Numbered from the stretch's first letter, positions 9,373 to 11,642 are shown. The stretch is 64,000 nucleotides of DNA from Nitrososphaerota archaeon (GCA_021159365.1 JAGGRY010000043.1:6418-70417); one strand, 5' to 3'. Numbers and translations are program-made. Notes: a model not told the origin generated them from the letters alone.

Positions 9373-9753
9373 GTGTGTGGATTGAAGAAGATTTCTCCAA
9401 GAAGGCTTAGGAGGATGCAGGCGAGAATGCTCAGCGGACTCGGCTTAGACTTGAAAGAGCTTGGAACCGCCGATGAGATCTTGATAAGATTTCCTGATAA
9501 ACAGCTTATCCTAAGAGGCGCAAGCGTTATTCAGGTGAATCTTGAGGGTGAGAGAGTATTTCAGCTTATTGGAGGAGAGGTTGAAGAGAAAGCTGTTGAG
9601 GAAATGATAGAGGAGTATGTGCCGCCGGATGAAGATGTGGCCTTAGTTGCCGCCCAAGCCGGCGTGGACGAAGATCTGGCGAGAGAAGTTTTGAAGGAAG
9701 TTAAAGGGGATCTGGCGAAGGCCATACTATTATTGAAGTCTAGGAAATCCTAA
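9373..9753 (+). CDS. nac: nascent polypeptide-associated complex protein (aNAC)
   Basis: NAC domain (ADEILIRFPDKQLILRGASVIQVNLEGERVFQLIG) plus a C-terminal UBA-like VALVAAQAGVDEDLAREVLKEVKGDLAKAILLL. GTG start. Confidence 0.85.
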   Translation: MCGLKKISPRRLRRMQARMLSGLGLDLKELGTADEILIRFPDKQLILRGASVIQVNLEGERVFQLIGGEVEEKAVEEMIEEYVPPDEDVALVAAQAGVDEDLAREVLKEVKGDLAKAILLLKSRKS

Positions 9754-11516
9754 GTCAAGACTAAACCCGTATTTGGATTCACTTTTCCAAGCCTCTCAAG
9801 ATGGCTGAAGATCTCTTTATAGATCCTTAATCCTTTCCTAAAACTTAACGAGACAATGTATCCAGATCTCATCAGTGGCGCTAGTTCCAGATCTGCCTCA
9901 AATCTATCTCCAATACTCTTAAACCTCTCCCTTCCAGATATCGGAAGATAACTATACATATCTGACCCAACGAGTTTCGCTAAGAGATCTTCTCCAAACC
10001 TGTATGAATCTATTCTTAGAAATCTCTTGGCAGCTGATCGAGGACATCTTCCAGCAACGCCGATTTTTCCATCGCTAACTTTATTCACGCAATCATCTAA
10101 GTTCCTCAAGATGACCTTAGCGGTTGAGACAACGTCTTCCGAGATGAAGGAAGTGGATCCGGCGAGATATCTTGAAGCCTCCATGAGCCCGGCGAAAGAT
10201 ATGATTGATCGCACTCTATTCTTCCCATAGATCTCCTCCATGAGCTTCAGTCCATCGAGTAGGGCCGAGGCCAAATTGGTCACACGTTCACTAATCCTCT
10301 CAAGCATTTCGTCCAAATCCCTCCTAGATTCTAGGGCTGCTCCAAGCAAGTTTACGGTCCCGATCGAGTGAATTAATGGAGATTTATCCCAAACTCTATA
10401 TCCGCTTAGGAGGATGCTTCCATCGAAGGTGTAGATATGCGGTATTCCAAGTCTATGGATCTTCTCCTCAAGATCCCTAAATCTCTTGGATGAAAACTCG
10501 CCTAAATCTATGATCAGCCCAAGCCTTTTCCTTAGAGACGCTTGAATCCCTTGAATAAGCTTATCAAAGACATGGTTCTCTAATTTTATCGATAGGATTC
10601 TACCTATCGGAAAGTTCGAGACAGCCGTTGACAATATCTTCGCAAGGGCGTCAGGCTTGATCTCGGTATGAAGTTCTATCATGGTCTCTCTTCTAACGGA
10701 TAGTGAATTACGCAGTATCTCGGCGAATAATTCAATGATCTCCCCGCTCTCAAATCCATATCTCCTAGCGAAGAGTCCTATAAGCCAAGATGATATCGGA
10801 TATATGTCTATTCTTCCAGATAGATGCTCTTCCGCGACATCTCTGGGAAGCATGTTCAAGATCGTGTATTCTCTTATTATCGATCCTGATGACTTCTCTA
10901 GGAAGAATCTATGATCCTTTAGCTCTAAGAATCTCTTCAAGATCCTTGAGACGTCGTAGACAGGCATTCCAACCCTGGTCAACATATGCCTATATCTCTC
11001 CAATCCTCTATCGAGGAGAATTGAATTTACCAGCTCTCTGATCAGCGGAGCTGTGAGATAATCTATCTTTAGGTCTAGGAGCTTCCGTTCAGCTATCGAG
11101 GCGATTTCTCCAGCGATCTTCGGGGTCAGCTTCGCTTCCCTGATTAAAGCCTTGGCTATCTTCGCCTTATCGAACGGCTCTATCAGCTGATCGCTTCTCC
11201 TAACTATCAGCATCCTCCTTTCGCCAAGATCTCTCTCCAACTTTCTAAGATATTCTAGGATTATCTCACCCTTCTTTGAAAGGCTGTACTTCCTGCTCCT
11301 TTGATCTACTTCGATTAATTCAGCGGTCAGAAGTTTCTTTAGGTGATAAGAGAATTTTCCGGCGTCCCTATCCCTTTCAAGTCCCAGCGTCTCCATCAGC
11401 TCCGAATAATTCATTTCTTTCTTTGAGAGGTTTCTTAAAATTTGGAGCCTAATCGGAGAGGAGATCGAGTCGAGGACAACTTCCATGGATGATTTATCCT
11501 TAGATTCGCCGCTCAT
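9750..11516 (-). CDS. ArsR-type wHTH + ATP-cone + degenerate NrdD-like domain protein (putative nucleotide-sensing regulator)
   Basis: N-terminal wHTH: SSPIRLQILRNLSKKEMNYSELMETLGL...KYSLSKKGE. ATP-cone: LIVRRSDQLIEPFDKAKIAKALIREA...LIRELVNSIL. Then NMLPRDVAEEHLSGRIDIYP, which resembles the NrdD segment LLPRDVVQAHERGDIHYHDL. No glycyl-radical C-terminus is present. Confidence 0.6.
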   Translation of the reverse strand: MSGESKDKSSMEVVLDSISSPIRLQILRNLSKKEMNYSELMETLGLERDRDAGKFSYHLKKLLTAELIEVDQRSRKYSLSKKGEIILEYLRKLERDLGERRMLIVRRSDQLIEPFDKAKIAKALIREAKLTPKIAGEIASIAERKLLDLKIDYLTAPLIRELVNSILLDRGLERYRHMLTRVGMPVYDVSRILKRFLELKDHRFFLEKSSGSIIREYTILNMLPRDVAEEHLSGRIDIYPISSWLIGLFARRYGFESGEIIELFAEILRNSLSVRRETMIELHTEIKPDALAKILSTAVSNFPIGRILSIKLENHVFDKLIQGIQASLRKRLGLIIDLGEFSSKRFRDLEEKIHRLGIPHIYTFDGSILLSGYRVWDKSPLIHSIGTVNLLGAALESRRDLDEMLERISERVTNLASALLDGLKLMEEIYGKNRVRSIISFAGLMEASRYLAGSTSFISEDVVSTAKVILRNLDDCVNKVSDGKIGVAGRCPRSAAKRFLRIDSYRFGEDLLAKLVGSDMYSYLPISGRERFKSIGDRFEADLELAPLMRSGYIVSLSFRKGLRIYKEIFSHLERLGKVNPNTGLVLT

Positions 11517-11642
11517 CCCAACCTAAAATCATAACTGCTTTTCAGTAAAAGTATTCGTATTACCATTAGGCTTGTTCCAGAGATCAAGTATTTTCCAGCG
11601 CCGTTAAATGTATAAATGGTGATTATCTGGGCTTTTAGTGGG

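Follow-up and report, generated by a model that had tools for sequence, protein, structure and literature searches.

A winged-helix protein built on an inactivated class III ribonucleotide reductase, a putative nucleotide-sensing transcription factor of Nitrososphaerota archaea

Introduction

What does a ribonucleotide reductase (RNR) that has lost its chemistry and gained a DNA-binding domain do for an archaeon? The question is raised by a gene in a 64,000-nt stretch of DNA from a Nitrososphaerota archaeon (GCA_021159365.1 JAGGRY010000043.1:6418-70417; "the window" below means this whole stretch). The gene encodes a 588-aa protein in which a winged helix-turn-helix (wHTH) and an ATP-cone precede a region resembling NrdD, the class III RNR. 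An initial annotation had read the protein as a dNTP/ATP-sensing transcription factor derived from an inactivated NrdD, and its architecture, its catalytic losses and the linkage of longer relatives to RNR genes support this reading, in which the regulatory function itself is putative. We are almost certain of the architecture and of the catalytic death. On balance, we think it probable that the protein senses nucleotides and serves as a transcription factor for RNR or dNTP-supply genes, and is thus a functional analogue of NrdR, not a member of its family.

NrdR, the RNR-specific repressor of bacteria, joins a Zn ribbon to an ATP-cone in about 150 aa (TIGR00244). An extract of one paper calls it "rare in archaea" (PMC9110341), and an extract of a recent preprint states that it has no archaeal orthologues (bioRxiv 10.1101/2025.03.28.645925). 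The extracted table of RNRdb has 6 archaeal NrdR entries (PMC2795772), and archaeal NrdR is listed with the class I RNR operons of haloarchaea in tables from PMC3019208; a protein like the present one is absent from both sets of entries. We found no description of a wHTH-ATP-cone-NrdD-like protein in the full-text literature, a search that left subscription journals and supplements outside.

Results

Domain architecture of the 588-aa protein

The open reading frame (ORF) is real: its translation contains every peptide quoted in the initial annotation. The gene is present in one copy in its genome, and homologues of the protein that are 84-98% identical have a length of 588-589 aa. The parts of the gene are as follows.

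9750..11516, minus strand: whole gene, wHTH + ATP-cone + dead NrdD-like region (588 aa, ATG start; ORF listing)
9750-9752, minus strand: stop codon of the gene (ORF listing)
11226..11489, minus strand: ArsR/SmtB-type wHTH (aa ~10-97; Pfam, PDB profile matches, model)
10977..11207, minus strand: ATP-cone (aa 104-180; Pfam PF03477, model, alignment)
9753..10976, minus strand: shortened, by all appearances catalytically dead class III RNR (NrdD) barrel (aa 181-588; profile, hhalign, Foldseek, collinear alignment)
10377..10427, minus strand: finger-loop remnant (aa ~364-380; Tyr373 at the place of the thiyl-radical Cys, no Cys in the loop)

The ArsR/SmtB-like wHTH proposed initially was recovered by three Pfam profiles that exceed their cut-offs, DUF7347 (aa 15-87, E 7.3e-10, 39.4 bits vs 27.6), HTH_20 (aa 19-70, E 1.6e-8, 34.8 bits vs 27) and HTH_5 (ArsR; aa 20-69, E 7.2e-7, 29.4 bits vs 22). 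When a family profile was compared with the PDB, the wHTH matched NolR and ArsR chains, and NmtR was also among the matches. We modelled the protein with AlphaFold2 on an alignment of 81 family sequences (A1), which gave a predicted local distance difference test (pLDDT) of 89.3 and a predicted template-modelling score (pTM) of 0.79. In this model the wHTH has helices at 10-17, 21-32, 37-43, 48-64 and 81-97 and wing strands at 68-71 and 76-79, with the recognition helix around DAGKFSYHLKKL; H58, Y77 and G83 are invariant in the 81 sequences. The linker to the cone, aa 98-103, was modelled with low confidence.

The ATP-cone of the initial annotation likewise stood (PF03477, aa 104-173, E 2.6e-7, 31.5 bits vs a cut-off of 25.8). 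It is modelled as a beta-hairpin followed by four helices, can be aligned by hhalign to the cone of the same genome's own NrdD, and contains the invariant residues V105, R106, F115, I120, L124, E127 and I159-R160-E161. The recognition helix, the ATP-cone and the helix after the cone are the most conserved parts of the family in A1.

NrdD ancestry of the C-terminal barrel

The remainder of the chain had been described as ~390 aa of NrdD-like sequence. Run on the single sequence, Pfam NRDD (PF13597) matched aa 386-439 with E 0.0085 and 15.2 bits (cut-off 26.2), and in an NCBIfam scan the ArsR and NrdD matches were all sub-threshold (TIGR02487, 11.7 bits vs 326) and NrdR was not matched. As the NRDD score lies below the Pfam cut-off, the single-sequence test is insufficient, and it was family profiles, hhalign and the fold that bore the description out. 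A profile of 34 close family members (A2) matched solved NrdDs (9d3x, E 2.2e-5; 4coi, E 4e-4), and hhalign aligned A2 with the genome's true NrdD from aa 105-560 to NrdD 18-632 (E 9.7e-5, probability 58%). With longer members added, as in A1, the profile matched 8p23 at 1.8e-34, 9d3x at 5.3e-34, 4coi at 1.8e-29 and T4 NrdD (1h78) at 1.3e-17. Intermediate family members exceed the Pfam NRDD cut-off alone (P0045, 4.5e-15; P0062, P0066 and P0068, ~1e-65 to 1e-70).

A Foldseek search of the PDB with the model returned class III RNRs first (9dca, 2.6e-15; 4col, 2.5e-14; 8p2c, 6e-14; 1h78, 9.6e-10; template-modelling score ~0.5) and class I RNRs only from E ~5e-7 on. The profiles and the predicted fold thus confirm aa 181-588 as a class III RNR barrel, and significant matches are at hand for both cone and barrel.

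Catalytic residues lost and retained

Residues were compared in a MAFFT alignment with the same genome's true NrdD. HIHDL of the enzyme is replaced by IDIYP, in agreement with the altered HYHDL segment noted initially, and the NFDTYLAP segment is absent. The finger loop SMCCRLRL...GGGLFG is shortened to LSGYRVWDKSP, in which Tyr373 (LSGYR) aligns with the thiyl-radical Cys of SMCCR, and there is no Cys in the 46-residue segment before the conserved Asn389. NrdD continues into a Zn ribbon and the SRIVGY glycyl-radical motif, and the 588-aa chain ends just before them: the four Zn-ribbon Cys columns are all gaps, and no CxxC...CxxC is found in the last 95 aa. The initial annotation had listed the glycyl-radical C-terminus and the Zn site as absent, and the finger-loop Cys is absent too. 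By the hhalign ranges, ~160 aa of internal NrdD sequence are deleted as well. With the radical Cys changed to Tyr and without the Zn ribbon and the glycyl-radical tail, the protein, judged from its sequence, cannot be a reductase.

Other NrdD positions are retained. The Asn of the LNxPR motif (Asn389) is kept in 194/200 family proteins, and H383, G443, E446, R498, D503, Y521 and G552 also occupy conserved NrdD-motif positions; the motifs common to both proteins are the LNxPR Asn, R...D, YS and GG. We infer from this alignment that the retained positions may still form a nucleotide pocket.

A still-active RNR or other radical enzyme, working with non-canonical residues or with a radical domain supplied in trans, would fit the conservation of the pocket positions Asn389, R498, D503, Y521 and G552, the barrel fold kept at high model confidence and the NrdG activase encoded in the genome. 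NrdG, however, adjoins the real nrdD, and the family is present throughout those aerobic ammonia oxidisers that rely on nrdJ. Together with a finger loop that has no Cys, the missing glycyl-radical domain and Zn ribbon, the lost HxHDL and NFDTYLAP segments and the internal deletion, this makes retained catalysis very improbable.

Real RNR genes elsewhere in the genome

A complete NrdD of 722 aa (ATP-cone 1.1e-24, NRDD 3e-201), with its own cone, HIHDL, CCR, Zn site and SRIVGY, is encoded on contig C29, and the gene for the radical-SAM protein NrdG follows. Contig C15 encodes the class II enzyme NrdJ (TIGR02504, 745 bits vs a cut-off of 400). With complete nrdD and nrdJ genes elsewhere, the 588-aa gene is the third paralogue, and a non-catalytic one. 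That it is one part of a split active enzyme, which the initial annotation had named as grounds for refutation, was rejected: the C29 NrdD is full length, with a cone, Cys, Zn ribbon and glycyl-radical motif of its own. NrdR (TIGR00244) had no match at E <= 0.01 in the genome, which is 89% complete.

Four ORFs of the genome contain an ATP-cone: NrdD, NrdJ, the 588-aa protein and a 277-aa protein on contig C6 (L160:1489-2322, plus strand). The last combines a cone of 28.5 bits with AF1548-like_C and is another use of the cone outside RNRs. On contig C15, a gene for topoisomerase VI subunit A (L083:3-1100, minus strand) lies 46 bases downstream of nrdJ on the same strand; the two may be a replication-related gene pair.

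Distribution and composition of the family

A word-index search found 91 relatives, and phmmer, run exhaustively, returned 995 cluster representatives at E <= 1e-3, of which 437 lay at <= 1e-10 and 128 at <= 1e-30. Most of the phmmer relatives are 640-780 aa long, and the strongly conserved part corresponds to aa ~10-246 (wHTH, cone and first NrdD helices), over which longer members are 35-50% identical to the 588-aa protein. In a search of one genome per species, 115 stretches were confirmed and the best 80 were kept as loci. Relatives occur in Caldarchaeales (Wolframiiraptor, Geocrenenecus, Terraquivivens, Pelearchaeum, Benthortus, Caldarchaeum), in Conexivisphaerales, Nitrososphaerales and Nitrosopumilales (Nitrosopumilus, Nitrosopelagicus, Cenarchaeum), and in Bathyarchaeia, Hecatellales, Methanomethylicia and Nezhaarchaeales. 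Longer members come from Nitrosopumilales, Nitrososphaerales/Conexivisphaerales, Bathyarchaeia, Methanomethylicia and Nezhaarchaeales, and their public annotations read "ArsR family transcriptional regulator" or "anaerobic ribonucleoside-triphosphate reductase".

Within the order, 30/31 genomes have a family match, almost always in single copy, NrdJ is found in 28/31 and a full-length true NrdD in 5/31, so the gene is not tied to the class III RNR. In a sample of the phylum, matches (E <= 1e-20) were found in 243/401 genomes, a count that takes in one genome flagged as unpublished, and in 239/396 high-quality genomes. The pattern is all-or-none by family (19/19, 11/11, 69/69 and 30/32 vs 0/19, 0/24, 0/14 and 0/20), and no frameshift or internal stop codon was seen in the orthologues of the order and phylum counts. 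The gene is maintained by selection, being near-universal and single-copy in the order and all-or-none by family in the phylum.

That it is a decaying, functionless remnant of a duplicated nrdD, as truncation, internal deletions and lost catalytic residues might suggest, is scarcely credible against this distribution, an intact ORF, close orthologues of equal length and a confidently predicted fold. Contigs of two RNA-seq libraries from one sample also cover parts of the gene at 90-99% likeness, although DNA carry-over is possible, they are no proof of transcription, and the uncovered parts carry no information. In metagenomes of hydrothermal vents and sediments, the stretch is represented in 18 DNA runs that come from many studies.

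We took a census of the radical residues in 200 family proteins of at least 540 aa. The finger-loop window had no Cys at all in 136/200, 8/200 had a Cys in [GSAM]C[RVLIKQ] context and 12/200 a loose RxxG[YFW] within their last 95 aa; Cys motif and RxxG[YFW] tail never occurred together (0/200). A CxxC...CxxC Zn ribbon is present in 99/131 proteins longer than 625 aa vs 3/69 of those at or below 625 aa. The longer members (about 640-780 aa) thus also lack the radical residues but mostly keep the ribbon, and some also have the tail, with other residues in place of the radical Gly (RSSPLY in L043, RMSAKY in L038, RQSTVY in L037); the ribbon is the last feature of the Nitrosopumilus proteins, which stop directly behind it. 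In L044 and P0081 a Cys and a Gly are both present, in non-canonical contexts, and a few basal members of this type may, from their sequences, have residual radical chemistry. Nitrosopumilales members (L066, L072, L078, L067, L070 and L073) carry variable, strongly acidic N-terminal extensions with runs of D, E and L before the wHTH, which the 588-aa protein does not have.

A maximum-likelihood tree of 49 rows was computed with the "quick" setting of IQ-TREE, with 7 true NrdDs as an assumed outgroup; many rows are of odd composition, one branch is long, and the root is assumed. The family forms one clade against the true NrdDs (Shimodaira-Hasegawa-like approximate likelihood-ratio test, SH-aLRT, 100). 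Methanomethylicia/Nezhaarchaeales and Bathyarchaeia forms branch first, followed by a Nitrososphaeria clade (99), which splits into the ribbon-bearing Nitrososphaerales and Nitrosopumilales and a second clade (100). In the latter, the ribbon-bearing, 620-aa L036 is sister to the ribbon-less Caldarchaeales forms, which include the 588-aa protein. From this placement, the truncation is derived and the family looks vertically inherited. The 588-aa protein is, by these comparisons, the most reduced form of what we take from the sequences to be a large, undescribed archaeal pseudo-enzyme family. No stand-alone wHTH + ATP-cone form was found, since a search of proteins of at most 322 aa gave 8 matches that were mostly partial, and the dead NrdD body therefore seems to be needed.

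Ligand positions of the ATP-cone

In Streptomyces coelicolor NrdR, an extract of PMC9110341 describes hairpin residues K50 and R51 that bind phosphates, E56 that bonds the adenine amino group, F58 in the same loop as E56, and K62, which is needed for nucleotide binding. With the cone of the same genome's NrdD as the guide to register (VRKRDGRIVEFDKTKI vs VRRSDQLIEPFDKAKI), K50 falls at R107, R51 at S108, E56 at E113, F58 at F115 and K62 at K119. E113, F115 and K119 are thus kept, and conservation in the family reaches at least 90% at S108 and E113. Going by alignment and model, the cone is intact in fold and mostly intact in its ligand positions, with a changed hairpin.

Linkage to RNR genes

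To assess linkage, we scanned 70 ORFs around the family gene in 12 long-form loci with Pfam and searched the 80 loci by tblastn with NrdJ, NrdD and NrdG. A true RNR gene is the immediate neighbour of the family gene in 31/46 long-form loci (27 nrdJ, 4 nrdD), and of the 15 that have no such neighbour at least 4 are too short to judge. Class II nrdJ is convergent to the family gene in 9 Nitrososphaerales/Conexivisphaerales-type loci and lies ~200 bp downstream on the same strand in 18 Nitrosopumilales loci, and true nrdD lies 60-325 bp downstream on the same strand in 4 Bathyarchaeia loci. The case for an RNR-related role is built mainly on this linkage to two RNR classes, in two orientations and across orders.

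In three Bathyarchaeia-type loci (L038, L044 and L048), pyrB, accompanied by pyrI in L038, lies within 1-3 genes of the family gene. These aspartate carbamoyltransferase neighbours hint at a wider nucleotide-metabolism neighbourhood.

Adjacency to RNR genes would also be expected of a non-catalytic regulatory partner that acts on the RNR protein itself, for example by pairing with NrdD or NrdJ and lending it an ATP-cone or a specificity site, with a minor or non-DNA role for the wHTH. The NrdD body is always retained, no minimal form was found, NrdD acts as a dimer (as titles of solved dimeric structures have it), and in the Bathyarchaeia NrdD next to the family gene in L038 no cone shows at E <= 1e-5. 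Its counterparts in the other Bathyarchaeia loci, however, align from the cone onward, and the family gene is kept beside NrdJ proteins that have cones of their own. It is also kept in 25/26 relatives from the order that yielded no full-length true NrdD. The wHTH, and its recognition helix especially, is among the most conserved parts of the family, which is hard to explain without DNA binding. We consider a partner role improbable.

The gene order in Conexivisphaerales is family gene, nrdJ, NAC, PUA, and in the window it is family gene, NAC-like, PUA, HflX-type GTPase, HTH_3. An order of ORF sizes like that of the window was seen in all 16 of the short-form loci examined (34 were available; sizes only were compared). 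The window and, by ORF size, the short-form loci thus have the NAC-PUA flank without nrdJ, which appears to have left this position in Caldarchaeales.

Surroundings of the gene in the window

The neighbours of the 588-aa gene are the NAC-like gene and secE, and no NrdG lies beside it. The convergent NAC-like gene (9373-9753, UBA_HYPK match) overlaps the stop codon of the 588-aa gene by 4 bases (9750-9753), which leaves no room for separate terminators between the two. On the other side lies the following region.

11517..11615, no strand assigned: intergenic region, presumed promoter of the 588-aa gene (99 bp; ORF map, Pfam names of neighbours)

The region is common to the divergent secE-spt5-rpl11-rpl1-rpl10 genes. 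It contains a CTTTTA-NN-GAAAAG element, at about -38 to -25 of the 588-aa gene, that is conserved in two genomes of the same genus.

Candidate operators

The pattern GTCAA-N5-7-TTGAC (at most 1 mismatch) was found in 18/52 nrdJ upstream regions, where 100 shuffles averaged 1.05 and never exceeded 4; the counts overstate independence because the genomes are related. It is present in 8/8 Nitrososphaerales-type, 9/10 Nitrosopumilus and 1/6 Nitrosopelagicus regions and absent from the one Cenarchaeum region (0/1). In Nitrososphaerales-type loci the arms (T)GTCAA/TTGAC(A) are conserved and the spacer varies, and a second, less perfect GTCAA box lies ~75 bp downstream, beside a TATA-like element. 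Few family genes have the pattern in their own upstream regions (4/114). We regard it as a candidate operator in relatives.

CGATCA/GATCAT words recur only in Nitrosopumilus, Cenarchaeum and the genus of the present genome, a weak lead. Conserved CGATCAT words stand in the spacer between family gene and nrdJ of L069 (8023-8227) and the aligned Nitrosopumilus loci, where a ACGATCATTTT-N-AAAA-N-TGATCAG arrangement precedes the GTCAA palindrome. The density of GATC in the Nitrosopumilus spacer is 13-14 per kb vs 3.8 per kb in the rest of the loci, which in related genomes is a lead only. Inverted repeats in the four Bathyarchaeia spacers between family gene and nrdD were not notable.

In the present genome, the nrdD-nrdG promoter (C29:12305-12370, L001:1065-1130) has two 17-bp palindromes, TTGGACACCGTGTCCAA and TTGGATACGGCGTCCAA, 49 bp apart, which flank the TATA box and do not recur in the genome at <= 3 mismatches. 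A sister genome (L084) has both conserved while the DNA between them has diverged, and in another genus (L085) TTGGATGGATAATCCATCCAA, which echoes them, abuts the start codon. The divergent gene (L001:411-1061, minus strand) encodes a 216-aa protein with a PH0730-like_N wHTH and DUF4443; it lies beside nrdD in the sister genome too and matches no NCBIfam family. This protein is a second candidate regulator of nrdDG, and because its gene diverges from the same promoter, the palindromes are not assignable to the 588-aa protein.

The sole other intergenic match to TTGGAY-N3-11-RTCCAA in the genome is TTGGATGGTTCATCCAA at C12:1603, just upstream of a TATA-like element and a gene for a 505-aa protein with a signal-peptide-like N-terminus; a regulator common to this gene and nrdDG is possible. 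The palindrome upstream of nrdJ in this genome, AATCGCTAAGYGATT, was not found at the other promoters examined.

The recognition helix reads DAGKFSYHLKKLL in the short clade vs ESGKFAYHLRKLL in the nrdJ-linked clades (FSYHLKK vs FAYHLRK). With such a difference between clades, a different operator in the short clade would be unsurprising.

Discussion

Several observations weigh against a regulator of RNR genes. The initial annotation had asked whether homologues sit next to nrd genes; the longer forms do so mostly, beside nrdJ or nrdD, but the short form does not, with an RNR gene in the flanks of 0/34 short-form loci, this genome included. Gene neighbourhood, moreover, indicates a functional link and not a mechanism. 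The annotation had also asked for a motif shared by the nrd promoters, and here the answer was negative: no motif was found that the promoter of the 588-aa gene has in common with the nrdJ or nrdD promoters of this genome. GTCAA-N5-7-TTGAC is present in 0/27 Caldarchaeales nrdJ upstream regions and is at chance level in this genome (128 matches vs ~111 expected). Enrichment of 6- and 7-mers in the 52 nrdJ upstream regions, from 13 clades, gave nothing above shuffled controls, nor did 5-mer dyads in the 27 Caldarchaeales regions rise above the null. The nrdD palindromes may belong to the divergent wHTH-DUF4443 protein instead. In the cone, the canonical K-R pair of the hairpin is R107-S108, with the invariant R106 one position earlier, so that nucleotide binding is plausible and not assured.

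These points bear on a further possibility, that of a nucleotide- or energy-sensing transcription factor with targets other than RNR genes, such as the divergent secE-spt5-rpl11-rpl1-rpl10 genes or a broader growth-related regulon. The gene is head-to-head with the cluster for secE, spt5, L11, L1 and L10 in the window, and in ~10/16 of the short-form loci examined the upstream ORFs are sized as secE-spt5-ribosomal genes (sizes only). Adjacency to nrdJ has been lost in the Caldarchaeales clade, no RNR-promoter motif could be tied to the 588-aa protein, and its recognition helix differs from that of nrdJ-linked relatives. The conserved neighbourhood, however, consists of housekeeping genes and may be mere inherited gene order, the other short-form loci examined have a different upstream gene, and in the 99-bp region no operator-like repeat was identified apart from the promoter-like element. 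As the family overall is linked to RNR genes of two classes, we regard non-RNR targets as unlikely, and we continue to favour a nucleotide-sensing regulator of RNR or dNTP-supply genes.

The likeness of such a regulator to NrdR is one of function. Both join an ATP-cone to a DNA-binding domain. The genes of the longer family members mostly adjoin RNR genes, and in relatives only, such an RNR gene has a pair of palindromic boxes close to its promoter. The expected logic is that nucleotide load controls DNA binding, as an extract of PMC9110341 describes for NrdR. Unlike NrdR, the 588-aa protein would bind DNA through an ArsR-type winged helix and not a Zn ribbon, is four times longer, carries a dead NrdD barrel, and has a cone that descends from that of the NrdD enzyme itself. 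Neither the protein nor its genome matches TIGR00244. The description as an archaeal counterpart of NrdR is thus apt for a functional analogue and not for a relative, as there is no Zn ribbon and no TIGR00244 match.

With NrdD (PF13597; 9d3x, 8p23, 4coi, 1h78) the protein shares, collinearly, an N-terminal ATP-cone followed by a ten-stranded alpha/beta barrel. It differs in its extra N-terminal wHTH and in having no thiyl-radical Cys, glycyl-radical motif, Zn ribbon or adjoining NrdG. Its DNA-binding domain is like ArsR/SmtB in fold and sequence, but the protein is unlike the metalloregulators of that group (NF033788, 34.9 bits vs a cut-off of 55) and, in place of about 100 aa, is a multidomain chain of 588 aa in which the ATP-cone and the dead enzyme body would form the sensing module.

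We propose that an exapted class III RNR was the source of this transcription factor. The protein would bind DNA by its N-terminal winged helix, probably as a dimer held by the NrdD-like body, and would sense ATP/dATP by its ATP-cone; (d)NTPs may also be sensed in the dead barrel, which retains several positions of the NrdD nucleotide pocket. Nucleotide load would alter its affinity for DNA or its oligomeric state and so tune the transcription of RNR genes (nrdJ, and nrdDG where present), perhaps with other nucleotide-metabolism genes. What we infer in this scheme is that the protein binds DNA at all, which ligand or ligands it takes, which genes it controls in this genome and whether it represses or activates them.

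A bolder version, which we rate as something of a long shot, makes the family the long-missing dedicated regulator of dNTP supply in much of the Archaea: Nitrososphaeria (including marine ammonia oxidisers), Bathyarchaeia and Methanomethylicia. It would be a two-input sensor, with ATP/dATP read by the cone and NTP/dNTP by the barrel at the former substrate or specificity site, and the regulon of the Caldarchaeales form would perhaps have widened. If so, the short form, without a Zn ribbon and away from nrdJ, may regulate the secE-spt5-ribosomal cluster, and expression machinery would be coupled to nucleotide status.

The window adds to the family a minimal, ribbon-less form that coexists with nrdJ and nrdDG yet lies apart from RNR genes, in a head-to-head position with the secE-spt5-ribosomal protein cluster. 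The series of family members, from Zn ribbon with mutated Gly tail through ribbon only to neither, is a natural dissection of the parts that the putative regulator needs. The label "anaerobic ribonucleoside-triphosphate reductase" misleads metabolic reconstruction, for example by implying anaerobic dNTP synthesis in aerobes. If the regulatory function is true, the family shows clearly how an enzyme can become a transcription factor whose sensor is the allosteric domain that the enzyme already had. Transcriptional control of ribonucleotide reductases in archaea is largely unknown, and the family would then fill this gap in lineages of large ecological weight, among them the ammonia-oxidising archaea and Bathyarchaeia.

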